Part shown: piece by piece, positions 5,489 to 45,203 of the stretch
How positions within the stretch are numbered: position 1 is the stretch's first letter
How the letters are laid out: each line of letters opens with the position of its first letter
NCBI GenBank assembly: GCA_003554945.1
Contig: PWHN01000099.1
Coordinates: 9,289 to 73,288, forward strand
Length of the DNA stretch: 64,000 nt
Source: a bacterium
Lineage (GTDB): Bacteria; T1Sed10-126
Reading direction: 5' to 3'
The notes under the pieces: generated by a model
What the model was told of the DNA's origin: nothing
Databases searched by the model: none
Seen by the model: only the letters and a program-made list of their open reading frames with translations
Program-made: the position numbers and the translations under genes

Positions 5489-5878
5489 ATGAACTTATAT
5501 TATCTACTGGTGCTCATTGTTATTGCGGTGCTTGTTTTTGGCAGATATATATTAGCGGGGGCGAAATTTACCGCTGAAGATTTAGAGCAGTCAGACAACG
5601 ATTTATTGCCGCCTGAGGAGGACAGGGCAGAAAAAGTTCAAACAACGGGGAAAGAGTGGCCGATAATTGCCGAAAGTCCGCTGGACTATGAAATCCAGAC
5701 AATGAAAGCGCGGCTTGAGGCCGAAGAAATTCCGGTAGTTGTTGAAATTCAGAATCCAAACGTCACAAAAGGAGCGGCGAACCTGTTGAAGCACCGGCTG
5801 AGGGTTAAACCGGACCGCGTTCGGGAGGCTCTAAAACTGCTGCGGGAAGAAGGGTTAGACGATTATTTGAAGGAGTAA
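5489..5878 (+). CDS. Small protein with an N-terminal transmembrane helix, function unknown
   Basis: 129-aa ORF immediately after composite repeat copy A. Hydrophobic N-terminus LYYLLVLIVIAVLVFG. Confidence 0.45.
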   Translation: MNLYYLLVLIVIAVLVFGRYILAGAKFTAEDLEQSDNDLLPPEEDRAEKVQTTGKEWPIIAESPLDYEIQTMKARLEAEEIPVVVEIQNPNVTKGAANLLKHRLRVKPDRVREALKLLREEGLDDYLKE

Positions 5879-5964
5879 GTGGGAAAGTGTGAAAGTGTGA
5901 AAGTGGGAAAGTGTGAAAGTGTGAAAGTGGGAAAGTGTGAAAGTGTGAAAGTGGGAAAGTGTAG
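5879..5964. repeat. 24-bp tandem repeat (gggaaagtgtgaaagtgtgaaagt) x3 plus a partial copy
   Basis: Direct tandem copies at 5881-5904, 5905-5928 and 5929-5952, with a partial copy to 5964. No spacers, so it is not CRISPR-like. Confidence 0.8.
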
Positions 5965-33092: not shown

Positions 33093-33590
33093 ATGCGGAA
33101 AGGGTTTGATCAAACCGTGAAAATTAAGTCGAAGCCCTACGGCGAAATTGAAATTGACAGGGATAAAATAGTTACAGTCCGAGGCGGACTGTTTGGGTTT
33201 GAAGACCAGGAGGAATACGTAATCATAGGAAGAGAGAGCGAACAGCCCTTTGAGTGGTTACAGGCGGTAAACGATCCCGACCTGGCTTTTGTTGTAGTGC
33301 CTCCTAACCTCATACGACCGGATTACGAGCTTTCTATTCTGCCGGAAGATCTCAAGCAGATAGAAGCGGATTCGACCGACGATTTGATGCTTTATTCGAT
33401 CGTGGTTGTGCCACAAAATCCGGACGCGATGACAATTAACTTTCGCGGACCGGTAATAGTAAATCAGGAAAATTTTCTGGCCAAACAGGTGATTAACCAG
33501 GTAGATGAATATACGGTGCGTCATCGGGTTCTTGATGAGCTGGAAGCTTCCGGTCGGCAGGGACTGGTCGCGAAGGGCGGGAGCGAGTAA
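33093..33590 (+). CDS. fliW: Flagellar assembly factor FliW
   Basis: [49 protein letters not shown] is typical of FliW. Confidence 0.85.
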
Positions 33591-33841
33591 TGCTTGTTCT
33601 TACCCGAAAAGTTGACGAACGCGTTATGATTGGCGACGACATTGAGATTATGATTGTCGATCAGGACGGCGATCAGGTCAAACTGGGAATTGAAGCACCG
33701 CGTGAGATACCGATTCATCGCCGCGAGGTTTATGAAGAAATCCAGAAAGAAAACATCGAAGCAGCCCGCGCAAGCGGGGAGGAGACCCGTTCTGTGGCAG
33801 AGTTTCTTAAACAACAAAGTGAAGAAAAAAAAGAATCTTAA
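33590..33841 (+). CDS. csrA: Carbon storage regulator CsrA
   Basis: [51 protein letters not shown]. Its start overlaps the fliW stop. Confidence 0.9.
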
Positions 33842-33849
33842 AAAAATAT

Positions 33850-33878
33850 TTGACAAACGGCGATTGATGTCCGATAAT
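33850..33878 (+). promoter_or_regulatory. Sigma70-like promoter (TTGACA-N17-GATAAT) immediately after the csrA stop
   Basis: TTGACA at 33850-33855, a 17-nt spacer, and GATAAT at 33873-33878. Confidence 0.45.
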
Positions 33879-33884
33879 TAGATT

Positions 33885-34021
33885 GACATAAGAAAAAGTC
33901 AGCAAGGATGCTGGCTGGAGGACAATTTTTTCACATGGAGGTTTGATAATATTACACTTGTAAACTTAGCCTATTCTTGGTGTGCAGTCTCGGACTGCGC
34001 AGGCAGGGGTAGGTTTTTTTT
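33885..34021 (+). ncRNA. Candidate small RNA with multiple GGA motifs (possible CsrA-titrating sRNA)
   Basis: Bounded by the promoter at 33850-33878 and a T8 run at 34013-34020 preceded by GC-rich structure. Contains the hairpin gtcagcaAGGAtgctggc with AGGA in its loop, plus ctGGAGGAcaa, catGGAGgtt and caGGcaGGGGtaGG. Confidence 0.3.
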
Positions 34022-34185
34022 GTGCACCATGTTGTATACGCGCTTTTTTTGGGGCTCATGAGAGTTAAAGTTGGATTAGTAGTATTTGTAGTAACTCTGG
34101 ATTGATCTTTTTTCTTTTTTGCTCTACGGGGTAAACGGTTCGACGTCATTTGACGGCCGGACTGAAGCTCTTTGACATTCAAATA

Positions 34186-34210
34186 TAGTCGATAGGTTGA
34201 GACAGCCTGG
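34186..34210. repeat. Upstream arm of the inverted repeat bracketing flagellin gene 1 (partner at 35315-35340)
   Basis: tagtcgataggttgagacagcctgg versus downstream cccgggctgtctcgcctatcggctat. About 22 of 25 positions are complementary, with one indel. Confidence 0.6.
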
Positions 34211-34350
34211 ACGCCGGTATGGTGGTTGTATCCTCCGCCGCTTTAGTGGGGAACAACTGCTGTTACCGGACTGTTTTACCACGTTTTTTTTACATCATTA
34301 GTGCTTGACTGCACAGGACTATCAGTACAATTTAGCACAATCTTAGCACA

Positions 34351-34390
34351 ATTCGAATCAAGGACGATTCGATCTTAACTCCAGGAGGGA
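34351..34390 (+). promoter_or_regulatory. 5'UTR CsrA-binding-type hairpin (tcgaatc-AAGGAC-gattcga) plus SD ccaggaggga for flagellin 1
   Basis: Perfect 7-bp stem with a GGA-containing loop at 34353-34372. A second GGA lies in the SD at 34381-34390. The same module occurs before flagellins 3 and 4. Confidence 0.6.
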
Positions 34391-34401
34391 GTGTTCTACC
34401 G

Positions 34402-35295
34402 ATGGGTGGTATGTTTAGAATTAACACTAACGTTCAGGCTACATTTGCACAACGACAGTTACACAGAAGTTCTGGTGATCTTGACCAGGCGCAGGAGCGT
34501 CTGTCCAGTGGTTTACGTATTAACGTGGCTGCTGATGACGCCGCTGGACTGGCCATTGCTGAGAAATTGAGCATGGCCGGCCGTGGTCTTGACCAGGCGC
34601 AGTCTAACGCTCAGGACGGTATATCAGTACTTCAGACCGCCGAGGGTGGTCTTGAGTCTATTGGTGACGACCTGCAGCGGATGCGTGAGCTGGCTGTTCA
34701 GGCAGCTAACGACAGCTTGACTGACGATGACCGTGAACTGATCCAGACTGAGATTTCTCAGCTGGTAGATGAGGTTGACCGAACCGCCTCCACGGTTCAG
34801 TTTAACCAGCGTCAACTGCTTACCAATCAATTTGGTGAAGTTGACGAGGCTGGACGAGCTACTGCTGGAGAGGCATCACTGACTTTCCACATTGGCGCTA
34901 ACCGTGACGAGACAATCACGGTGGCCATGGGAGACGGTCAAGCTATTCAGACGGCTACCTCGCAAGCGCTTGGTATTCGTGTCGACGACGCCCCGATAAG
35001 CGTTGAATCACGTGAGGGTGCTGAATCGGCGATCGAAACGGTTACCCAGGCGATTAACGAAGTTTCGGAAACTCGCGCTAACATTGGTGCCGTTCAGAAC
35101 CGTCTCGAGGGAGCTGTTGACTTCCTGCAGATCCAGGGAGAGAACACCGAGGCTTCCGAGAGCGCGATTCGTGACGCTGACATTGCCGCGGAAGCGGTCA
35201 ACCAGACCCGAGCTAACATCTTGACTCAAGCCGGTACTTCCGTGCTTGCACAGGCCCAGCAGACGCCGCAGATGGCGCTGCAGTTGCTCGGTTAA
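34402..35295 (+). CDS. fliC: Flagellin (paralog 1, 297 aa)
   Basis: MFRINTNVQATFAQRQL...LSSGLRINVAADDAAGLAIAEKL and a C-terminal ANILTQAGTSVLAQAQQTPQMALQLLG. Confidence 0.9.
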   Translation: MGGMFRINTNVQATFAQRQLHRSSGDLDQAQERLSSGLRINVAADDAAGLAIAEKLSMAGRGLDQAQSNAQDGISVLQTAEGGLESIGDDLQRMRELAVQAANDSLTDDDRELIQTEISQLVDEVDRTASTVQFNQRQLLTNQFGEVDEAGRATAGEASLTFHIGANRDETITVAMGDGQAIQTATSQALGIRVDDAPISVESREGAESAIETVTQAINEVSETRANIGAVQNRLEGAVDFLQIQGENTEASESAIRDADIAAEAVNQTRANILTQAGTSVLAQAQQTPQMALQLLG

Positions 35296-35314
35296 CTTTT
35301 TTAGTTCTTTTTTA

Positions 35315-35340
35315 CCCGGGCTGTCTCGCCTATCGGCTAT
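35315..35340. repeat. Downstream arm of the flagellin-1 inverted repeat
   Basis: Reverse complement atagccgataggcgagacagcccggg matches 34186-34210. Confidence 0.6.
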
Positions 35341-35402
35341 CTTTTATTTTTACGAAAAACTGCTGGTGCGGTTTATGCCACAGCGGATGGGAATGAGATG
35401 AA

Positions 35403-35792
35403 ATGAATCATGGGACCGGAGCGATTGAGGGACCCGAGTTTCAAAATAGTTTGATCCAAAATAATAATTTGAACAGAGCCGAAACTACGGCTGAAACAGA
35501 CCGACCGGATAACTCTGCCGGAGCAGCGGTCGAGCGACCGGTTGCTGAGACTACCGTAAGTGTAGAGGATCAGGCAGTTGCCGAAGCTGTTGAAGAACTC
35601 GATCAGGCGGCCGCCGAAGCCTCTTTTTACGGGATTGATTTTAATATCTTGCCCGATGACAACCTGGTCCAGGCACGGTTGATCAGCCAGGAGAATGAGG
35701 AGTTGATTCGCGCTATCCCGCCTGATGAACTGCTGGAAATAAGGCAGCGCGTTGACGCTTTCATAGGACTGTTGTTTGATGTGACAAGATAA
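35403..35792 (+). CDS. flaG: FlaG-like flagellar protein
   Basis: C-terminal IRAIPPDELLEIRQRVDAFIGLLFDV matches the FlaG IPPEELL signature. Lies between flagellin genes. Confidence 0.6.
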   Translation: MNHGTGAIEGPEFQNSLIQNNNLNRAETTAETDRPDNSAGAAVERPVAETTVSVEDQAVAEAVEELDQAAAEASFYGIDFNILPDDNLVQARLISQENEELIRAIPPDELLEIRQRVDAFIGLLFDVTR

Positions 35793-35861
35793 CAAAACTT
35801 CATCGCCGCCCGGGTCACGGAAGACCTGGTTAAAAATCTCCAGGAGGGAGCTGAAGCCGCT

Positions 35862-36752
35862 ATGGGCGGTTTATTTCGTGTTAACACCAATACGCAGGCG
35901 ACCTTTATTGAGCGCCAGCTCTATCGCAATACCCGGCAACTGGATCGGGCGCAGGAACGTCTGGCCAGTGGCTTCAGGATTAATCGGGCAGCTGACGATG
36001 CAGCCGGGCTGGCTATTTCTGAAAAGTTGCGCATGGCCGAGCGCGGCCTGAGTCAGGCTCAGGCCAACGCTCAGGACGGGATCTCACTCCTTCAGACTGC
36101 CGAAGGTGGTATGGAGACAGTTACAGAAGATTTACAGAGAATTCGTGAGCTCAGCTTACAAGCGGCCAACGACAGTCTTACCGACTCCGATCGTGAATTA
36201 ATTCAGGCTGAAATAAATCAACTTGTCCAGGAGATAGACCGTACGGCCTCTACCGTGCAGTTTAACCAGCGTCAGCTGCTTAAAAATGATTTTGGAACTG
36301 TTGATGCTGGCGGTCGGGTCCAGGATGACGGCCGAGCTTCCCTTGCTTTCCACATTGGTGCCAACCGTAACGAAATTATCAGGGTTACTACAAACGAATT
36401 AGGAACTACTACCTCACGTTCTTTGAACCTGAGAACCGAGGATACTTCGCTAAGTATCAGTACACGCGAGGCCGCCGAGTCGGCAATCGAAGTGGCTACC
36501 CGGGCAATTAACCAGGTCTCCCGGCAGAGGGCTAATATTGGAGCACTTCAGAATCGACTCGAGGGTGCGGTCGATTTTCTCCAAATTCAAGAAGAAAATA
36601 CTCAACGTGCCGACAGCCGCATACGTGACGCTGACATCGCCCGGGAGACGATGAATATGACCCGCTCTCAAATTCTTGTCCAGGCCGGCACCTCGCTGCT
36701 TGCCCAGGCCCAGGAACTGCCCCGCACCATCCTCCAAATACTGGGCATCTAA
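35862..36752 (+). CDS. fliC: Flagellin (paralog 2, 296 aa)
   Basis: MGGLFRVNTNTQATFIERQL...LASGFRINRAADDAAGLAISEKL and a C-terminal QILVQAGTSLLAQAQELPRTILQILGI. Confidence 0.9.
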   Translation: MGGLFRVNTNTQATFIERQLYRNTRQLDRAQERLASGFRINRAADDAAGLAISEKLRMAERGLSQAQANAQDGISLLQTAEGGMETVTEDLQRIRELSLQAANDSLTDSDRELIQAEINQLVQEIDRTASTVQFNQRQLLKNDFGTVDAGGRVQDDGRASLAFHIGANRNEIIRVTTNELGTTTSRSLNLRTEDTSLSISTREAAESAIEVATRAINQVSRQRANIGALQNRLEGAVDFLQIQEENTQRADSRIRDADIARETMNMTRSQILVQAGTSLLAQAQELPRTILQILGI

Positions 36753-37034
36753 CTTTTTTCTTTTTTCTAAAGCTATCTTTGAAGTTTTTAGATTCCAGTT
36801 CCAGGTTTTAACTCGCAACACGCAACACGCAATAAGGTTTATGGTTTTGAAGTTTGATTTCAACTTTAAACTAAAAACTATAAACTGGAAACTAATTTTA
36901 TCCCGCAACTACACTTTTACACTTTCCCACTTTCTAACTTTCCCACTAACAAATTTCTCCACTCAAGATTTTTCCTCCGTAGTCGATAATTAAGAACAGG
37001 ATTATTACGAGACGACAGGGATCTTTGACATGTG

Positions 37035-37063
37035 AATACAGCCGGCGAACGGGGACCTGGCCC
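37035..37063. repeat. Upstream arm of the inverted repeat bracketing flagellin gene 3 (partner at 38061-38090)
   Basis: aatacagccggcgaacggggacctggccc. The downstream reverse complement is aatacagccggcgaacggagacctggcccg (29 of 30). Confidence 0.75.
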
Positions 37064-37093
37064 TTTTGTAGCATCAGTACGACCGTTGAACTT

Positions 37094-37132
37094 CGAATCA
37101 AGGATGATTCGATTCTAAAATTCCAGGAGGGA
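37094..37132 (+). promoter_or_regulatory. 5'UTR hairpin tcgaatc-AAGGAT-gattcga plus SD ccaggaggga for flagellin 3
   Basis: Same module as at 34351-34390, with one loop substitution. Confidence 0.6.
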
Positions 37133-37143
37133 GTGTTCTAATT

Positions 37144-38043
37144 ATGGGAGGTCTATTTCGAATCAACACAAACGTGCAGGCCACGTTCTCTCAACGTCAA
37201 CTGCACAGAAGTTCCGCTGATCTTGACAGAGCACAGGAGCGTTTGTCCAGCGGGTTAAGGATTAACGTCGCCGCAGACGATGCCGCAGGACTGGCTATTG
37301 CTGAGAAGTTAGAAATGGCTGGCCGCGGTTTAAGCCAAGCCCAGGACAACGCTCAGGACGGTATATCCGTCCTGCAAACCGCTGAGGGTGGTCTTGAATC
37401 CATTGGAGACGACCTGCAGCGGATGCGTGAGCTGGCCGTGCAAGCTGCTAACGACAGTTTGACTGACGACGATCGTGAACTGATCCAGACTGAGATTTCT
37501 CAGCTGGTCGATGAGATCGATCGCACAGCTTCCACGGTGCAGTTCAACCAGCGTCAGCTTTTAACCAACGAGTTTACAACCGTTGACGAATCTGGCGAGG
37601 CCCAAGAAGGTGAAGGCCCGGGTTCGCTTTCTTTTCACATTGGAGCGAACCGTGACGAGGTCATTACCGTGGACGTGGAAGACGACATTCAGACCGCAAC
37701 TGCTACAGCACTCGGTATTCGCGACGCTGACACGGGAGAACCCGTGAGCGTTGAAACCCGAGAACTTGCCGAATCCACGATCCAAACCGTTTCCGAGGCG
37801 ATTAACGAGGTCTCGGAAAGTCGGGCCAACATCGGTGCCGTTCAGAATCGGCTCGAAGGTGCCGTCGATTTTCTCCAGATTCAGTATGAGAATACCGAGG
37901 CATCGGAGAGCGCGATTCGTGACGCTGACATTGCCGAAGAAGCTGTTAACCAGACAAGGGCCAACATTTTGACCCAGGCCGGTACTTCCGTTCTTGGTCA
38001 GGCACAGCAAACGCCACAGATGGCCCTGCAGCTTCTGCAGTAG
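37144..38043 (+). CDS. fliC: Flagellin (paralog 3, 299 aa)
   Basis: MGGLFRINTNVQATFSQRQL...; N- and C-termini near-identical to paralog 1. Confidence 0.9.
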   Translation: MGGLFRINTNVQATFSQRQLHRSSADLDRAQERLSSGLRINVAADDAAGLAIAEKLEMAGRGLSQAQDNAQDGISVLQTAEGGLESIGDDLQRMRELAVQAANDSLTDDDRELIQTEISQLVDEIDRTASTVQFNQRQLLTNEFTTVDESGEAQEGEGPGSLSFHIGANRDEVITVDVEDDIQTATATALGIRDADTGEPVSVETRELAESTIQTVSEAINEVSESRANIGAVQNRLEGAVDFLQIQYENTEASESAIRDADIAEEAVNQTRANILTQAGTSVLGQAQQTPQMALQLLQ

Positions 38044-38060
38044 TTTTTTACTGACCTTTC

Positions 38061-38090
38061 CGGGCCAGGTCTCCGTTCGCCGGCTGTATT
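38061..38090. repeat. Downstream arm of the flagellin-3 inverted repeat
   Basis: cgggccaggtctccgttcgccggctgtatt, 18 nt after the stop codon. Confidence 0.75.
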
Positions 38091-38125
38091 TTTGAGCTGA
38101 TTTTCTCCAAGGGAGTTTTATTTCC

Positions 38126-39088
38126 ATGAAAGTAACTTTTTCTTCTGAACAGCCGCTTGAAATTGAAGCGCCTGACCCCGAGCAGAAGCTGGGAGATTAT
38201 ATCGATTTTGTAAATAAAAAATTAAGCGATGTAAACCGGTTTATTTTTTCTGCCGAGGTCGACGGCGAACAAATTACAGAAGAACGCTGCCGGCAGAAAT
38301 GTGATTCGTTTGAAGAATTAAAGCTGGAAGCCCGCTCTTTCGAAGAGATGACCATCGACACCATTGGCCGCTTAGGAGCTTATTGCCAGGAATACCTGGC
38401 TAAACTTCCACAGGTCATTGACGAGTGGAAAAAAAAGAGCGACGAAGAGAAAAATGCATTGCGTCGTCAAGTGCTTGAAGCTATAAATCTGGCCGGTAAG
38501 GTTCTGGACTCGATTGATGATTTTCTTGACGTCGCAGTGGAAGAACATGACACAATAAAAAGCAGAACAGAAAAATTGGCGGGGCAGTTTCGTGAGGCAG
38601 GGAGAGAAGAATTGAAGTCCTTGCTAACAGAGCAGGGGAGCGAATATTTTTCTGAATTATTTGACCACCTCAGAGCTGTACTGGATTACGTTGACGGGCA
38701 AAAAGATGCTGAGTCAGACCAGCTTTCACGTCTGGGCCGCCAGCTCGATGAACTGCACGAAGAACTAACCAACCTTATTAATAAATTCCAGGGCGGGGAT
38801 ATTGCCGACGCTTACGACCAATTGACTGATCGAGCTACTGAAATAGATGAATTGCTTGCTGTTATCGGCGGGTTGGACAAGACTGGTTTCCTCAAACGTA
38901 ATTTCACACCGGAAACTCAGGACGAATTAAGTCAGGCCCATACAGAACTTCACCGCGGTCTCACCGAATTACTTCAGGCCGTGGAGGAGCGCGATCCGAT
39001 AATGGTCTGCGACATACTTGAGTATGAGTTTTTACCCTACCTTGAATCTCTCCAAAAACTCTTTGGCAGCGTCGACGAAGCGGAATAG
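38126..39088 (+). CDS. Hypothetical acidic coiled-coil protein embedded in the flagellin array
   Basis: 320-aa ORF with no recognisable motif. It sits between flagellins 3 and 4 and lacks the CsrA-type leader. Confidence 0.5.
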   Translation: MKVTFSSEQPLEIEAPDPEQKLGDYIDFVNKKLSDVNRFIFSAEVDGEQITEERCRQKCDSFEELKLEARSFEEMTIDTIGRLGAYCQEYLAKLPQVIDEWKKKSDEEKNALRRQVLEAINLAGKVLDSIDDFLDVAVEEHDTIKSRTEKLAGQFREAGREELKSLLTEQGSEYFSELFDHLRAVLDYVDGQKDAESDQLSRLGRQLDELHEELTNLINKFQGGDIADAYDQLTDRATEIDELLAVIGGLDKTGFLKRNFTPETQDELSQAHTELHRGLTELLQAVEERDPIMVCDILEYEFLPYLESLQKLFGSVDEAE

Positions 39089-39093
39089 ATCGC

Positions 39094-39122
39094 TAAAGAA
39101 TTTTTTTAATCAAACCGATAAT
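39094..39122 (+). promoter_or_regulatory. Sigma28 (FliA)-type promoter candidate for flagellin 4
   Basis: TAAAGAAT-N13-CCGATAAT, against the consensus TAAAGTTT-N11-GCCGATAA. Confidence 0.4.
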
Positions 39123-39172
39123 ATAACTCAAAGCTAAGTACTATACCTCAATAAAACTATGTTCTCTGACAA

Positions 39173-39208
39173 TTAAATACGGCCGGTGTGACGTTTCCTC
39201 TCCCGGAG
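39173..39208. repeat. Upstream arm of the inverted repeat bracketing flagellin gene 4 (partner at 40298-40331)
   Basis: aaatacggccggtg is a perfect 14-nt core. An imperfect extension CCTCTCCCGGAG matches CCTCTCGCCGGTG in the partner arm. Confidence 0.6.
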
Positions 39209-39273
39209 TTGTTCTTTTTTTAGCATTTATTTATCTTTTTTATCCTTTTTGGAACAGCTCTCTGCTGTTCCAA

Positions 39274-39313
39274 TCGAATCAAGGACGATTCGATTACACT
39301 CCATAGAGGGAGG
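39274..39313 (+). promoter_or_regulatory. 5'UTR hairpin tcgaatc-AAGGAC-gattcga plus SD agagggagg for flagellin 4
   Basis: Same module again. It is preceded by another palindrome, ggaacagctctctgctgttcc (39251-39271). Confidence 0.6.
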
Positions 39314-39321
39314 CATGTACT

Positions 39322-40290
39322 ATGTCAGAACTTTTTCGTATTCAGAATAACATTGCCGCTCAGTTTGCACAGCGGCAACTTAACCGCTCTGATTCTACAT
39401 TAAACGAAGCCCAGGAAAGGCTTTCCAGTGGTTACAGAATTAACACCGCCTCGGACGATGCTGCCGGTCTTGCTATTTCGGAACGACTGCGAATGGCAGA
39501 CCGAGGCCTCGGTCAGGCGGAGAGAAACGCACAGGACGCTATTTCAGTTCTGCAGACCGCCGAAGGAGGCCTGGAAACTATTGGCGATAACCTTCAGCGG
39601 ATGCGCGAACTGGCCGTTCAAGCGGCTAACGACAGCCTGACCTGGGATGACCGGAGGTTGATCCAGACTGAGGTTGATCAGCTGGTCGAGGAGATCGATC
39701 GTAGTGCCTCGAGCGTGCAGTTCAACCAGCGACAGCTTCTTAAGAACGACTTTGGAACTGTCGACGCGTCTGGTGAAACTGAAGAAGGTTCGGGATCATT
39801 AGTCTTTCACGTCGGGGCTAACCGGGATGAAGTCATGGAGATTACAACCGATGAACTGCGAACCATGACTTCGGTTAACCTTGGTCTCCGACTCACGGAA
39901 GACCGGAATGAGATCATTGAATATCCCGGCGGTACTCTCTTGTATGGCCCCGACGATCAGTATTATGCTCTCAGTCTTTACCGGGACTCAGCCGGTAATT
40001 TGGATCGTAATGCTGCTGAATCCGCTATCGAGCGGATTACCCGGGCCATTGACCAGGTTTCAGACTCGAGAGCACGAATTGGTGCTGTTCAGAACCGTGT
40101 TGAGTCTACTATTGACTTCCTGCAACTTCAGCAGGAGAACACGCAGGCTTCTGAAAGCAGAATTCGTGACGCTGATTTGGCGGAAGAGTCCGTCCGACGG
40201 ACTCAAGCCGACATCCTGATGCAGGCCGGTACTTCCGTGCTTGCCCAGGCTAATCAGCAGCCTCAACTGGCATTACAGTTGTTGGCTTAG
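39322..40290 (+). CDS. fliC: Flagellin (paralog 4, 322 aa, divergent with a central insert)
   Basis: LSSGYRINTASDDAAGLAISERL and a C-terminal ADILMQAGTSVLAQANQQPQLALQLLA. Confidence 0.85.
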   Translation: MSELFRIQNNIAAQFAQRQLNRSDSTLNEAQERLSSGYRINTASDDAAGLAISERLRMADRGLGQAERNAQDAISVLQTAEGGLETIGDNLQRMRELAVQAANDSLTWDDRRLIQTEVDQLVEEIDRSASSVQFNQRQLLKNDFGTVDASGETEEGSGSLVFHVGANRDEVMEITTDELRTMTSVNLGLRLTEDRNEIIEYPGGTLLYGPDDQYYALSLYRDSAGNLDRNAAESAIERITRAIDQVSDSRARIGAVQNRVESTIDFLQLQQENTQASESRIRDADLAEESVRRTQADILMQAGTSVLAQANQQPQLALQLLA

Positions 40291-40415: not shown

Positions 40416-42023
40416 TTGCAATATCCGACTCAAATTATTAAAACCGTTGTTAATAATTTCAAAAATCAATATCCAGAAATTGAGCAAATTCCCGCCGGTA
40501 TAGAACCGCCACCCGAAACAGAAACCGGGGATCTGGCCGTTGCCTTACCAATGCGAGCAGCCGGTGCTCTTCAGCGCTCCCCCCGGGAAATTGCCACCGA
40601 GCTGTCAGAAATGCTAAAGCAACGCTCTGAACTCAAATCGGTTGAAGTGGCCGGTCCCGGTTTTGTTAATTGTACCTTCACTGATTCTTTTCTCTTAAAA
40701 AGCGTTGCGAAGATTATCGAACAACAAACGGTAGAATTTCCTGAACCTGGTTCAAACAAACGGGTGCTGATAGAATTTGTTAGTGCTAACCCGACCGGAC
40801 CGTTGCACGTGGGCCACGGTCGCGGGGCTATCTATGGCGACGTGCTCGCCCGTTTGTTTGAAGTCTTTGGCTATCAGGTTGAGCGGGAGTATTACGTCAA
40901 TGACGGTGGTTCTCAAATTGAGCGGCTCGCCGAAAGTATGCTCTTGCGGTCCCGGCAGGCAGAGGGCGAAGCTGTGGAATTATCCGAGGACCACTACCGG
41001 GGCGACTATTTAAAAGAAATAGTCGCTGATTCTGGTATTAGTCCCGGGGATTCTATTGAAACAGTTGCCCGCCGGGGAAAAGAGGAAATAATTGCCTGGA
41101 TTTTTTCGACCCTTGAACGGTTCCGGATAAATTTTGACAACACTGTTTATGAATCTGAAGTGGCACCTCCAGAGGCGGTAGGTGAGCTGGTCAAACGTCT
41201 GGAAGCGGAGGGGCTGGTTCGCCGGGAAGACGGCGCTACTTACTTGTCCACCTCGAAGCTGGGCGACGATAAGGACCGCGTGCTCATACGCAGCAACGGT
41301 GAGCCGACATACTTTGCCAATGACCTGGTCTATCATCTGGACAAGTATAACCGGGGAGCTGATCAGTTTATAGATATCTGGGGGCACGACCATCACGGCT
41401 ATCAGCAGCGCCTTCGCTCGGGATTACAGGCGCTGGGCTGCGCTACTGAACGGTTGGAGATCGAGCTCTATCAGCTCGTCGACCTTTACCGTGGAGGTGA
41501 GCCGCTGCAGATGTCTACCCGCCGGGGTGAATTTGTCACTCTGGACGAGTTGATTGATGAAGTCGGGGTGGACGCTGTTCGTTTTAACTTTTTGACTAAA
41601 AATCATAACAGTCCGCTTGATTTTGATATTGAGGTCGCCACCTCGCAGAGCGAGGACAATCCCGTCTATTACGTTCAATACGCTCACACCCGCCTGGCCG
41701 GCATTCTACGAAAAGCCGACGGGCAGTTTGACGACGTTGAACCGGAGGATAGTCTCTCCGAAGCTGGCCACAGACTGGTCTTCAAAGCGCTCGGGTTTGT
41801 TCCCTTCCTGCAACAGACTCTGGCCGGCCGTGAACCGCATCGTATAACCTTCTGGCTTCGAGAGTTGGCCCGCCATTTTCATACCTATTATACTGCGCAT
41901 CGGGTTGTTGACCCGTCGGCGCCGGCGATTAGTGCCCGCCGGCTGGAGCTGGTTAAATTTCTCAAAATAATCTTTAAGACCGGCCTGGACCTGCTCGACG
42001 TTAATGCGCCGGAGCGCATGTGA
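40416..42023 (+). CDS. argS: Arginine--tRNA ligase
   Basis: Class-I HIGH region (ANPTGPLHVGHGRGAIYGDVLARL), the ArgS anticodon-binding C-terminus, and ...QMSTRRGEFVTLDELIDE replacing KMSKS as in ArgS. Confidence 0.9.
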   Translation: MQYPTQIIKTVVNNFKNQYPEIEQIPAGIEPPPETETGDLAVALPMRAAGALQRSPREIATELSEMLKQRSELKSVEVAGPGFVNCTFTDSFLLKSVAKIIEQQTVEFPEPGSNKRVLIEFVSANPTGPLHVGHGRGAIYGDVLARLFEVFGYQVEREYYVNDGGSQIERLAESMLLRSRQAEGEAVELSEDHYRGDYLKEIVADSGISPGDSIETVARRGKEEIIAWIFSTLERFRINFDNTVYESEVAPPEAVGELVKRLEAEGLVRREDGATYLSTSKLGDDKDRVLIRSNGEPTYFANDLVYHLDKYNRGADQFIDIWGHDHHGYQQRLRSGLQALGCATERLEIELYQLVDLYRGGEPLQMSTRRGEFVTLDELIDEVGVDAVRFNFLTKNHNSPLDFDIEVATSQSEDNPVYYVQYAHTRLAGILRKADGQFDDVEPEDSLSEAGHRLVFKALGFVPFLQQTLAGREPHRITFWLRELARHFHTYYTAHRVVDPSAPAISARRLELVKFLKIIFKTGLDLLDVNAPERM

Positions 42024-43516
42024 AAAAGGAACGCTTTCTCCGTCGGCTGCGGCAGCAGAAAAAAACACTGGGCCGGACTGAACTATATTCCCTGTTTCAA
42101 TACCACCTTTTGATTCGTCAGTGGGATAATTATCCACGCTTTAAATTCCAACCAAAGCCGCCGCCGGCTAAAGTTGAAAATATGCTTGTCGTTCAGCTCA
42201 GCTCTATTGGTGACGTTACCTGCACAATCCCGGCCCTCTTTGCTCTTAAGGAGCGCTTCCCGGCCGCGGAGTTGCATTTTTTGACCGAAGCTGAATCTAC
42301 CGTTGGCGTGCTAAATCATCCGGCTATAGATAAACTCTGGACTTTACCTGCGGAGAGTTGGATTGGACTGCTGAAATCAGGTCAAAAACAAAATTTTGTT
42401 TCTGAACTGCGCGCCTGGCTTCATCAATTGAAAAAGCAGCGGTTTGATTTTTTACTTAATCTGCACAGCTCGCCGCTCTCCGCTCTAATTGGTAATCTGC
42501 TCGACCCGGACAGCTACTCTGGTTGCCTGATCGATAATAATCTACAGCCGGTTGTAATCGGCAGTCCGCATCAGTTTGCCCGCTATCTGGATCAGCCACC
42601 GCCCGTGCACACTCTGGGAGCCACCTGTCTTTACGCTGACGCTGTTCCCGAAAAGATGCAGTTTTATCGTCGTCAAGACGATAAAATAGAAAACAAAGTG
42701 GAAGAAATTTTTGCAAATAAACATCAGGACAATCGCCCGCACGTCTTGATAAATACAGGCTCCCGCATGAAGGGGCGTGTCTGGCCGCCCGACCACTGCT
42801 CGCAGGTGGTTGAGCAGTTGCTGGAAGCAGGCTGTGAAGTCGGTTTGATCGGTGGCCCCAGTGATTTTGAACGACTTGAGAAAATAGACAAACAAATTAA
42901 AAATCCACGTTTAATTAGCTGGTATAAAATTAACGATAGCTTGCTTGCGGACTTACACCTGTCTGACCAAGCTAACCTAACTGTTACTACTGATTCGGGT
43001 CCCCAGCACCTGATATCCGCCCGGGATAACCGCTGCTTGGTTTTGGCCGGAGACATCTGGGTTGGCCCCTGGACGGACCGCAGCTTAACGTTACAATCTA
43101 CTGAAAAGAAGATTGGGAGTTTGCCGGTAGAATTAATTGTTCAAACGGTCCTGGCACAATTGGAGCATGGTGAGCCCCCACAGCCCGGGGCAGGCGTTGA
43201 TTTGTTTCGCGGAGTAGGAGGGCGAAGCTTCTGGTTTCGTAACATACCGGTTGGTCAGAAAAGTTCGAATGAAACAAAAATGCGGCGCTGGCTTAAAAAG
43301 ATTTATCTTTACTCACTGCTGGAACAGGTCGGCAGCAGCCTGGGTTGGAAAGGGCTGGGGGAGTCCCCCCTGGAGCACCTGGAGGAATTATACGAGCTAT
43401 ACTGGTCGGTCGAGAAGCCTGATATACCTTACCCGAAAATTGATCAAGTGCTGCCCCCGGGACTATCTTTTCTGGCGGAAGATTACGAACTTAAATGGAG
43501 TTATGAAGATGGCTAA
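42020..43516 (+). CDS. GT9-family glycosyltransferase (heptosyltransferase-like) with a C-terminal extension
   Basis: MLVVQLSSIGDVTCTIPALFALKERFPAAELHFLTE is typical of the GT9 N-terminus. Its start overlaps the argS stop. Confidence 0.6.
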   Translation: MKKERFLRRLRQQKKTLGRTELYSLFQYHLLIRQWDNYPRFKFQPKPPPAKVENMLVVQLSSIGDVTCTIPALFALKERFPAAELHFLTEAESTVGVLNHPAIDKLWTLPAESWIGLLKSGQKQNFVSELRAWLHQLKKQRFDFLLNLHSSPLSALIGNLLDPDSYSGCLIDNNLQPVVIGSPHQFARYLDQPPPVHTLGATCLYADAVPEKMQFYRRQDDKIENKVEEIFANKHQDNRPHVLINTGSRMKGRVWPPDHCSQVVEQLLEAGCEVGLIGGPSDFERLEKIDKQIKNPRLISWYKINDSLLADLHLSDQANLTVTTDSGPQHLISARDNRCLVLAGDIWVGPWTDRSLTLQSTEKKIGSLPVELIVQTVLAQLEHGEPPQPGAGVDLFRGVGGRSFWFRNIPVGQKSSNETKMRRWLKKIYLYSLLEQVGSSLGWKGLGESPLEHLEELYELYWSVEKPDIPYPKIDQVLPPGLSFLAEDYELKWSYEDG

Positions 43517-45203
43517 TATAAACCAACAGCTAAAACCGGCTGAGGAACTGGGGCAAAAACTAAAACAGGCGGGGGTCAAGAAAAAAGAACTATCCGTTCT
43601 GAGTCAAATTTCAGCACGGACTCCACAGGCAGGTTATAGAAGCGCGGAGGCAACCGCCGGTGTTGAGGCTCTAAAGACTCCTTTGCTGGTCTTTTGCGGT
43701 GTTGAAAATTTTCCTTTGATGCAGACCAGTGACCCTCGAGCGCGCATGAGTTCCGTGGTTCTGGTCGAGCCCGAGCTTGATTATTTTAAAGATTTTCTTG
43801 AAAATTTCGATCTGCTTTCTCTTCTGCGTGAACGGACTGTTTTTATTGTGCTCGGAGATCGTGTTGATCGCTTGGGCGACGAGCTTGAGTGCTTGTTTGG
43901 TCTTGCTGCCAGCAATGAAGTCTGTACTGTCAAACCTATTCCCTCCCGCTCATCGCAGTTTAATGAGGCCCTGGACAGCTTTGAGAAGTTCAAGCAGATA
44001 TCGAGCAGTAACATTGATACAATGGATAAGTTTCTTGAAGACTGGCATCTTAATTTTGCCGCTAATCTACCCCGGTATTTAAGCGAAAAAAATCTCCGCT
44101 CTCTCGAAGGTGCTCTGTCCGGTCAGACGGCTCTCCTTATTGGTCCCGGGCCGACCCTTGAGAAACGGCGTCCCTATATTGAAAAATTAAAAGACAGACC
44201 CGTTATTGCTCTCGATACAGCTCTGCCCACCCTGATTAATATAGGTGTTGAGCCTGATTTTGTGGTCAGTGTTGACGTCGGCGAGAGCAACCTGAAATAC
44301 TTGCGTGAAATACCTGACTCTACTGCACTTGTCGCTCCCGCTTATATGCGTCCCGACGTGCTGGAAAGAGCTGCGGAAAATTATCTTTTTGAACCTAACT
44401 TTCCGCCCGCCACCTGGCTGACGCCGGAGCTCGACTCGCCCGGTTTTCTTGCCGTCTCCGGGACGGTAGCCGTCACGGCCATTGACCTCGTCAGGCTGCT
44501 TGCCCCGGCCGAATGTTTTATGATCGGGGTTGACCTTAGCTATCCCGATGCTCTTGCTGTTAGTCGCCTCAGCCCTGTTTACAACGACTATGTTTCTAAA
44601 CTCAATCGCTTCAAGACGCTGCCCGCCCAGAATCTGGCTAAAATATCTGAAAAAGAGCCCATTACCGTTGAGGTTGACGGAGAAAATTTATTGACTTCGG
44701 TCCCGTTTTATCGCTGGAGGCGTTTTTTTGATTATCTGATCGGTGAGATGGAGACAAAATTTTATCGTGACACAAAATTAGTCCTGCCGGTGGAAAATAC
44801 ACACCCTTTCCCCCCGCTGACCAGCCTTGAAGAAAACGCAGAGTCTGAACTTAAAGTAAAATCTTTTAGCTCAAAAACGGATGTATCATCCCTGAAGCGT
44901 CGCCTGAAGCAATTTGAGCAAGATTTACGTCAGCTTGAAATGGATCTTAAACCACTGGCGGTCTTTCAGCAGCGGAACGAGGAGATGTTTCTCAATCGCT
45001 GGCTTCAGTTCACACGTTTGCTGGTAGCTTTTGATGAAGTGGTCCGTTACTTTCACTGGGAAGTGGACCGTTTAACACGGGAACTGCAGGAAATAAACTC
45101 TGAAAATAAGCTGGCGTTTTTTCAGCGCCAGTACGAACGGTGGAAAAAATTGATTACTCAGACACGCAAAGGAGTTGAACAGGGTTTAAATTCCCTCGAA
45201 TGA
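43503..45203 (+). CDS. DUF115 / Maf-like (motility-accessory-factor, MptE-like) protein, a putative flagellin glycan transferase
   Basis: GQTALLIGPGPTLEKRRPYIEKLKDRPVIALDTALPTLINIGVEPDFVVSVD matches the DUF115 Rossmann core. The ATG at 43503 overlaps the GT9 stop; the longer 43251 start would run through the GT9 gene in another frame and was rejected. Confidence 0.55.
   Translation: MKMANINQQLKPAEELGQKLKQAGVKKKELSVLSQISARTPQAGYRSAEATAGVEALKTPLLVFCGVENFPLMQTSDPRARMSSVVLVEPELDYFKDFLENFDLLSLLRERTVFIVLGDRVDRLGDELECLFGLAASNEVCTVKPIPSRSSQFNEALDSFEKFKQISSSNIDTMDKFLEDWHLNFAANLPRYLSEKNLRSLEGALSGQTALLIGPGPTLEKRRPYIEKLKDRPVIALDTALPTLINIGVEPDFVVSVDVGESNLKYLREIPDSTALVAPAYMRPDVLERAAENYLFEPNFPPATWLTPELDSPGFLAVSGTVAVTAIDLVRLLAPAECFMIGVDLSYPDALAVSRLSPVYNDYVSKLNRFKTLPAQNLAKISEKEPITVEVDGENLLTSVPFYRWRRFFDYLIGEMETKFYRDTKLVLPVENTHPFPPLTSLEENAESELKVKSFSSKTDVSSLKRRLKQFEQDLRQLEMDLKPLAVFQQRNEEMFLNRWLQFTRLLVAFDEVVRYFHWEVDRLTRELQEINSENKLAFFQRQYERWKKLITQTRKGVEQGLNSLE

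Follow-up and report, generated by a model that had tools for sequence, protein, structure and literature searches.

A FliW-CsrA flagellin locus with predicted two-site leader operators and a candidate csrA-linked small RNA in an uncultured bacterial lineage

How are the four flagellin genes that follow fliW and csrA on contig PWHN01000099.1 (assembly GCA_003554945.1) regulated, and does CsrA in this locus answer to the protein FliW alone? In the current picture of the field, CsrA is antagonised by small RNAs in the Gammaproteobacteria or by FliW in most other flagellated bacteria. In the present study, we analysed a 64,000-nt stretch of this contig, called the window throughout, on whose forward strand the genes, leaders and predicted promoters of the locus lie. 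We propose that the locus probably constitutes a flagellin-homeostasis module in which FliW and CsrA act together with operators in the flagellin leaders and with a small-RNA decoy. This candidate small RNA is encoded between csrA and the first flagellin gene, carries two CsrA-type sites, has a promoter of its own and is conserved among relatives; it had been missed in the original prediction, an earlier account of the locus made from the sequence alone.

The gene fliW (33093-33590; Pfam PF02623, 1.2e-35) directly precedes csrA (33590-33841; 83 amino acids; Pfam PF02599, 1.6e-25), and the start of csrA overlaps the stop of fliW as TAATG, most relatives showing a TAATG or TGATG overlap as well. 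The overlap agrees with the translational coupling proposed earlier for the two genes. The four flagellin paralogs placed after csrA, i.e., flagellin 1 (F1, 34402-35295), flagellin 2 (F2, 35862-36752), flagellin 3 (F3, 37144-38043) and flagellin 4 (F4, 39322-40290), each contain the Pfam domains Flagellin_N and Flagellin_C, with flaG (35403-35792; Pfam PF03646) lying between F1 and F2. CsrA has the residues R6, R44, E46 and N55 and a C-terminal extension of ~28 amino acids past residue 55; N55 and the C-terminal extension have been tied to FliW antagonism (PMC11934962). For comparison, FliW homologues led us to 11 further non-redundant loci with the same synteny and FliW identities of 58-92%, making 12 loci together with the window; where single loci have to be told apart, they are given by L numbers.

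The leaders of the flagellin genes provide the first part of the answer. The hairpin TCGAATC-AAGGAY-GATTCGA (TCGAATCAAGGAYGATTCGA), which had been reported for F1, F3 and F4, occurs exactly three times in the window, at 34353, 37093 and 39274; allowing up to three mismatches yielded nothing further in the window, and 100 shuffles yielded no match at all. These stem-loops (SL1) each stand 30-49 nt ahead of the ATG. A Shine-Dalgarno (SD) sequence with a second GGA comes next, as had also been described, and forms a small hairpin (SL2): CUCC-AGGAG-GGAG for F1 and F3, and CUCC-AUAGA-GGGAGG for F4. The F1 leader spans 34353-34391 (SL1 UCGAAUC-AAGGAC-GAUUCGA at 34353-34372, SL2/SD at 34379-34391) and the F3 leader 37093-37133 (SL1 at 37093-37112, SL2/SD at 37121-37133). 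The F4 leader, at 39250-39313 and with a folding z-score of -4.1, begins with an extra, stable hairpin (39250-39273; UUGGAACAGC-UCUC-UGCUGUUCCAA) that abuts SL1 (39274-39293) ahead of the SD (39299-39313); this extra hairpin is kept in L003 and, slightly changed, in L004.

For F2, the original prediction was of a gene with the SD and without the hairpin, which might escape direct control by CsrA. The hairpin is in fact there. Alignment of the four leaders brought out CCGGGTC (35810-35816), the loop ACGGAA and GACCTGG (35823-35829) in the same geometry as in the others, so that the F2 leader (35810-35850) consists of SL1 CCGGGUC-ACGGAA-GACCUGG at 35810-35829 and SL2/SD CUCC-AGGAG-GGAG at 35838-35850. 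Compared with the stem UCGAAUC/GAUUCGA, it carries three compensatory pairs and one G-U, and its counterpart in L003 reads CCGGGUC-AAGGAU-GACCUGG. A covariance model (R2) built from F1- and F3-type leaders only, with no F2- or F4-type leader among them, recovered the F4 leader at 37.8 bits and the F2 leader at 36.7 bits (E ~2e-7), and the four flagellin leaders are its only forward-strand matches with E < 1 in the 64 kb. With a covarying version of the same hairpin in place, the escape of F2 from CsrA has lost its support. On the forward strand as a whole, seven hairpins of at least 7 bp with an ANGGA loop were observed versus 3.1 +/- 1.8 in shuffles, and five of the seven fall in intergenic DNA between 33.9 and 39.3 kb.

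Among the relatives (11 assemblies), each flagellin leader examined has a hairpin with an A(A/U/C)GGA(U/C/A) loop closed by C-G and then an SD hairpin, the one exception in position being the F4-type leader of L007, whose GGA hairpin lies further upstream and on a different stem. In an alignment of 20 leaders, drawn from 10 assemblies, pairing holds in 93% of cells and double-sided changes affect four of the eight stem pairs, which was matched by none of 500 shuffles and by no slid register. The invariant part is (A/U)C-ANGGAN-G(A/U), and the stem varies. It has been established that the consensus obtained for CsrA by in vitro selection (SELEX) is RUACARGGAUGU with hexaloops preferred, that the repeat of the RNA CsrB is CAGGA(U/A/C)G, and that one CsrA dimer can bridge GGA sites 10-63 nt apart (PMC7652899). 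The loop and closing pair of the leaders fit both the SELEX consensus and the CsrB repeat, and the spacing of ~22 nt from the GGA of the SL1 loop to that of the SD falls within 10-63 nt. Two GGA sites, one of them overlapping the SD, are present in all four window leaders and in 20/20 aligned leaders of the relatives. The two-site arrangement (BS1 plus BS2) that had been put forward for the locus is therefore supported by the protein domains, the loop consensus, the spacing and the compensatory changes taken together; by analogy, the architecture is that of a two-site CsrA operator of the type known from Bacillus hag and Campylobacter flaA, and every paralogue of this four-flagellin family keeps such a putative operator. 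We hold it to be very likely that the flagellin leaders are CsrA operators.

In the mechanism that we propose, CsrA dimers would bind all four flagellin mRNAs at SL1 (C-ANGGAN-G) and at the SD GGA within SL2, block the access of ribosomes and so repress the flagellin mRNAs, which FliW would free by partner switching once flagellin has been exported, in analogy to Bacillus and Campylobacter. F2 is probably co-transcribed with F1 and flaG; since the flaG-F2 spacer provides it with a covarying SL1, it would be controlled like the other flagellins.

The second part of the answer lies at the start of the 560-nt spacer between csrA and F1, where a unit at 33850-34021 comprises a promoter, a hairpin, an unpaired 17-mer and an intrinsic terminator. 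The strong predicted sigma70-type promoter (33850-33878; TTGACA-N17-GATAAT) has 11/12 consensus matches and precedes a candidate small non-coding RNA of ~135 nt (33885-34021, with the predicted 5' end accurate to +/- 3 nt). Its SL1 (33897-33916; AGUCAGC-AAGGAU-GCUGGCU) displays a GGA in a hexaloop closed by C-G, the unpaired 17-mer CACAUGGAGGUUUGAUA (33932-33948), near-invariant in the 12 loci and similar to a ribosome-binding site, supplies a second CsrA-type site, and the terminator (33968-34021) consists of a long stem and then U8. The two sites, CAAGGAUG in the hexaloop and the unpaired ACA(U/A)GGAGGU, are 26-31 nt apart and both invariant, the latter matching 8-9 of the 10 positions of the SELEX core ACARGGAUGU (PMC7652899); the window copy also contains a third, GGAGGA, which lacks conservation.

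The promoter is retained in 12/12 loci, with TTGAC(A/T) and nAnAnT set exactly 17 nt apart. A covariance model of the small RNA (R1) gives 88-126 bits and a single copy in each of the 12 loci, always 3' of csrA; it detected no further copies, be it in the rest of the window or in the other loci. The loop GCA(A/U)GGA(U/A)GC is invariant in the 12 loci, and the stem that carries it covaries, as GAAGC/GCUUC in L007 and UUAGC/GCUGA in L015. In the RNAalifold consensus both helices covary, with 94% of cells paired and eight double-changed pairs, and 0/500 shuffles reach all of these measures; the terminator helix has five covarying pairs and 94% of its cells paired, and its run of 7-8 U is found in all loci. 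Folding z-scores of the small RNA are -4.2 to -5.1 versus shuffles. Furthermore, because the unit, promoter included, is intact at 380 nt (L020) and 270 nt (L022) from csrA, it is not merely the csrA 3' end, and its terminator probably serves fliW-csrA read-through as well. The combination of invariant motifs with covarying stems argues for selection on the RNA itself, and we hold it to be very likely that the small RNA is a real, functional transcript.

Is this RNA a member of a known family, or does it encode a peptide? It matched no Rfam family, neither at gathering thresholds nor with E relaxed to 10, the best sub-threshold match being CsrB with 12.2 bits versus a gathering score of 71, and no GacA/UvrY box (TGTAAGN6CTTACA, up to three mismatches) was found near 33700-33850. 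An open reading frame (ORF) was considered and rejected: the window, L003 and L006 do have frames that open after GGAGG and run to the UGA of GGGGCUCAUGA, but in L005, L007, L008, L017 and L021 these are interrupted or shifted, and no reading frame is conserved across the aligned loci. When a metagenome was scanned for the two-motif pattern, L013, which is identical with L005, was the one true homologue, and three unrelated mRNAs had the pattern as a true leader; it precedes two flagellin genes of an unrelated contig and also two other genes. In L012 (Ga0315281_10017075), from an organism with at least three flagellin genes, the leaders of the two flagellin genes at ~5596 and ~9124 (flipped orientation) read AUCAAGGAUGA-N18-20-ACAAGGAGGUUUG(A/G)U-AUG, which is the two-motif module of the small RNA without an obvious stem at the first site. 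Such mRNA matches show what the motif mimics and are of no help for covariation. The description that best fits the sequence of the small RNA is that of an mRNA leader of flagellin type mimicked by an RNA that lacks an ORF, and it may plausibly derive from a former flagellin leader.

What, then, would such a mimic do? As a separate transcription unit next to csrA, laid out like a leader with its AAGGAU hexaloop followed at a distance of ~30 nt by the unpaired SD-like ACAUGGAGGU, it would bind one CsrA dimer across both sites and serve as a decoy or buffer of free CsrA, whereby an RNA antagonist would join the protein antagonist FliW. The housekeeping-type promoter would allow it to be transcribed independently of the late flagellar sigma factor, and transcripts reading through from fliW-csrA would carry both CsrA-type sites at their 3' end. 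We regard titration of CsrA as a somewhat probable function of the small RNA. The wider proposal, a FliW-type Csr system with a dedicated csrA-linked RNA antagonist, in which CsrA availability would be set jointly by partner switch and RNA decoy, is put forward tentatively, as a serious possibility.

These interpretations have to be weighed against several others. Stem-loops at the 5' end can shield mRNAs from decay, and the leader hairpins might be generic stabilisers of this sort or the sites of another RNA-binding protein. Yet an ANGGAN loop and a C-G closing pair that stay invariant on a variable stem are the opposite of a purely structural stabiliser; moreover, the leader motif coincides with the CsrA consensus, has a GGA-containing SD as its partner within the distance that a dimer can bridge, belongs to a locus that adjoins fliW and csrA, and follows a design experimentally validated in two phyla (PMC4894983, PMC13443453), all of which makes this explanation very improbable. 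The segment after csrA, for its part, might be without function, i.e., only the 3' untranslated region and terminator of fliW-csrA or the decaying remnant of a flagellin leader. There is no terminator between csrA and the unit in the window, so that read-through transcripts would end at that of the unit, and the unit sits at the position of the Bacillus hag leader, given that in Bacillus hag directly follows csrA. It is hard to reconcile a functionless segment with a TTGACA-N17-nAnAnT promoter kept in 12/12 loci across FliW identities of 58-92%, with the units that are intact far from csrA in L020 and L022, or with the signs of selection at the RNA level, and we consider it quite improbable.

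A role in cis is conceivable too, as the unit lies upstream of F1 in the same orientation and CsrA affects transcript elongation in other systems (PMC7652899): CsrA binding to an attenuator of F1 would decide between termination and read-through. The terminator and the SL1 of F1 are, however, separated by 330-560 nt of poorly conserved spacer with a conserved promoter-like element of its own (element B, described below), the terminator stem is long and stable, and the consensus fold has no conserved antiterminator pairing, which renders an attenuator very improbable. Finally, the small RNA might be regulatory without being a sponge, whether by base pairing with the 17-mer as seed, by CsrA-assisted pairing as for SR1 of B. 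subtilis, or as a mimic that engages the 30S subunit. In its favour, conservation of the 17-mer extends past the positions needed for recognition by CsrA (GGAGGUUUGAUA), other genomes use this string as a functional SD with its spacer, and CsrA-promoted pairing of a small RNA with an mRNA has been cited for B. subtilis (PMC7652899). On the other hand, a search of the locus for a complementary target came up empty, each of the two conserved motifs agrees with the CsrA consensus, one of them is displayed in the hexaloop hairpin that is the preferred presentation for CsrA, and CsrA as the partner is the simplest explanation for so close a linkage to csrA. A non-sponge role is accordingly rated as unlikely, and titration of CsrA is the function that we prefer.

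Certain points nevertheless weigh against our interpretation of the locus. All 12 loci belong to a single clade, and the basis is sequence and structure prediction. The genes, the motifs and structures with their covariation, the conservation of promoter and terminator and the linkage to csrA have been shown; transcription, CsrA binding and the direction of regulation are inferred for an uncultured organism. A start site 3' of SL1 would remove the operator from a leader, although covariation argues for SL1 being transcribed, and because SL2 is invariant in the F1-F3-type leaders, covariation lends no support to its pairing. As for the small RNA, it has only two GGA sites versus 7-22 in classical sponges, and stoichiometric titration would therefore need high expression. 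In addition, the invariant tail of the 17-mer, GGUUUGAUA, exceeds what CsrA is known to need and hints at a further partner, such as the 30S subunit or a base-pairing target.

Where would transcription of the leaders begin? The sigma28-type promoter recognised earlier for F4, TAAAGAAT-N13-CCGATAAT at 39094-39122, stands as given; read as TAAAG-N16-CCGATAAT, it is kept in L003, L004 (TAAGT) and L007. A scan for TAAA-N14-17-CGATAW missed it, its spacing being one base longer, and comparison of orthologous upstream regions resolved the matter. The TCGATA elements that had been noted upstream of F1 and F3 are also present, at 34189-34196 and 36983-36990, one base away from the coordinates first reported. 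Treating the two as one class is another matter: the F3 element is the conserved -10 of a predicted sigma28-type promoter (36963-36990; TCAAG-N15-TCGATAAT, near-consensus, with T(C/T)AAG-N15-YCGATAA(T/A) in L003, L004 and L021), and the F1 element is the 3' half of element B. F1 fails the sigma28 architecture TAAA(G)-N15/16-(G)CCGATAA and has element B only. No fliA gene was found within the 64-kb window.

Element B is found upstream of F1 (34169-34196; TCTTTGACA-N11-TCGATAGG), F3 (37022-37049; TCTTTGACA-N11-CCGGCGAA) and F4 (39163-39190; TCTCTGACA-N11-CCGGTGTG), and its consensus G(A/T)TCTTTGA(C/A)A-N10/11-YCG(G/A)YR recurs upstream of F1-, F3- and F4-type genes (L003-L008, L017, L021, L022). 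For F3 and F4, it stands 35-46 nt downstream of the respective sigma28-type promoter. Its -35 is sigma70-like with a spacer far too short for sigma70, and its 3' half is like a sigma28 -10. Element B may be a promoter for a second, alternative flagellar sigma factor, an operator or an RNA element. All the candidate start sites of these predicted promoters are upstream of SL1, consistent with the covariation of SL1. The sequence GTAC(A/G)A(T/C) 5' of SL1 was also considered as a -10 and is an unlikely promoter: in L004 it abuts SL1, and the start would fall inside the covarying hairpin.

The spacer between the small RNA and F1 holds several other elements. A conserved motif at 34052-34063 (GGGCTCATGAGA; GGGCYCATGRGA with the palindromic core CTCATGAG) follows the small-RNA terminator by 14-130 nt and is present once in each of the 14 loci that hold the spacer (L001-L008, L015, L017-L019, L021 and L022); no conserved ORF begins or ends there. 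Between element B and the SL1 of F1, at 34221-34298, a large hairpin with GGUGG/CCAC as its closing stem and U8 behind it forms an attenuator-like terminator, and the relatives have other hairpins with shorter U-runs and no sequence conservation at this place. Directly 5' of the F1-type SL1 there are short CA-rich repeats (ACAAUUUAGC, 2.6 copies at 34327-34353; UUAGUAACA/UUAGCAACA in L005 and L021), which might enhance translation or be bound by another RNA-binding protein.

Two details concern fliW and csrA themselves. The start of fliW is the ATG at 33093 or the GTG at 33117; homologues of 154-157 amino acids, which cover 95% of the protein, have an N terminus shorter by 8 residues, and on their evidence the true start may be the GTG (157 amino acids), which follows GGAAAGGG. 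In the 3' end of fliW, 20-38 nt before the csrA start, there is a hairpin CGGUCGG-CAGGGA-CUGGUCG (33552-33571), and the SD of csrA is GGGAG (33577-33581); together these could be a site of CsrA autoregulation. GGA hairpins upstream of csrA are frequent and heterogeneous in the relatives, where the region encodes the Gly/Glu-rich tail of FliW, which confounds the signal.

Upstream of fliW lie flgN, flgK and flgL, with fliW between flgL and csrA in a setting of late flagellar genes, and argS follows the flagellin region on its 3' side. Among the flagellin genes sits the gene of a 320-amino-acid protein (38126-39088), on record as DUF8042 (PF26154), which is syntenic between flagellin genes in L003, L004 and L007. 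It gave no above-threshold match in our Pfam search, and a search of 5.8 billion proteins returned four homologues only, all of them members of the clade; it may be a clade-specific flagellar accessory protein. Tandem 8/24-nt repeats (AAGTGGGAAAGTGTGAAAGTGTGA) occur in 3.6 perfect copies at 5877-5962, and the same repeat family reappears in reverse complement (CACTTTCC / CACTTTCTAACTTTCC) at 36912-36947, just 5' of the F3 sigma28-type promoter, in an array that is longer in L003 (upstream of 14348). On the 3' side of argS, 42020-45203 contains a GT9 heptosyltransferase-like gene and an MptE-like (Maf-type) gene, and in the more distant relatives L023 and L025 argS is flanked by NeuB/PseC-type nonulosonic-acid genes, which suggests flagellin glycosylation in the lineage. 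As regards the wider occurrence of the small RNA, the distant relatives reached through ArgS (L023-L026) are uninformative, since no flagellar genes adjoin their argS. An identical contig was found in a sediment metagenome from a Kulunda soda lake. No named organism has an ArgS with more than 47% identity to the one encoded here, ~27 relatives reach 52-61%, and on this account the lineage is placed as an uncultured deep branch.

How does this locus compare with known systems? The leaders extend the CsrA-FliW-flagellin circuit to an uncultured deep-branching lineage, a useful but expected result. In Campylobacter jejuni, the flaA leader with SL1, SL2 and ANGGA loops has been experimentally established (Dugar et al. 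2016, PMC4894983), and the likeness is close: two stem-loops with an ANGGA in each loop, the second over the ribosome-binding site, compensatory changes that support the structure, and FliW as the protein antagonist. Unlike in C. jejuni, four paralogous flagellin genes all have the leader design here, and the SD GGA of the F4-type leaders lies in the 3' arm of SL2 instead of the loop. Furthermore, the flaA leader of C. jejuni can itself titrate CsrA, whereas the titrator proposed here is a separate ORF-less transcript with a sigma70-type promoter of its own; C. jejuni and Helicobacter pylori have been reported to be without antagonising small RNAs (PMC4894983). In Bacillus subtilis, the hag leader has two GGA stem-loops, the BS1 hairpin and BS2 over the SD, and is governed by the Hag-FliW-CsrA partner switch (Yakhnin 2007 and Mukherjee 2011, summarised in PMC7652899 and PMC13443453). 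Our locus shares with it the order flgK-flgL-fliW-csrA and then flagellin, the CsrA N55 with a C-terminal extension, and two GGA sites with one at the SD; it differs in its multiple flagellin paralogues, in the predicted small-RNA gene, which separates csrA from the first flagellin and takes the place that hag has in Bacillus, and in belonging to an unclassified deep branch.

The candidate RNA, for its part, resembles CsrB/CsrC and RsmX/Y/Z (Rfam clan CL00106) in being, as far as its sequence tells, non-coding, with its own promoter and a Rho-independent terminator, and in bearing CAGGAUG-like CsrA sites in a hairpin loop and a single-stranded stretch. In contrast to these RNAs, it has two sites versus 7-22, no sequence or covariance similarity to them and no GacA/UvrY box, and it coexists with FliW, although an anti-correlation between FliW and the Csr small RNAs has been reported (PMC7652899, PMC4894983). 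Whether small RNAs co-operate with FliW was termed undetermined in a 2020 review, for Geobacter there are speculative small-RNA predictions only (PMC11934962), and we found no FliW-type system with a dedicated small RNA in the searchable literature. If our proposal is true, a csrA-linked two-site RNA alongside FliW would offer a candidate for combined control that lends itself to testing, and the first example of FliW and a small RNA acting together, the question left by that review; the RNA, CsrA and FliW are all small, which would allow work in vitro or in a Bacillus chassis with no need to culture the organism. McaS and GadY of Escherichia coli provide the nearest measure of what two sites might achieve, in that at least two GGA are enough for high-affinity CsrA binding and antagonism when the small RNA is abundant (PMC7652899). 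They act mainly by base pairing, depend on Hfq and work in a host without FliW, whereas the RNA described here is linked to csrA and mimics the leader of the regulator's main target; if true, a decoy that copies the architecture of this target would point to a route from target leader to sponge RNA.

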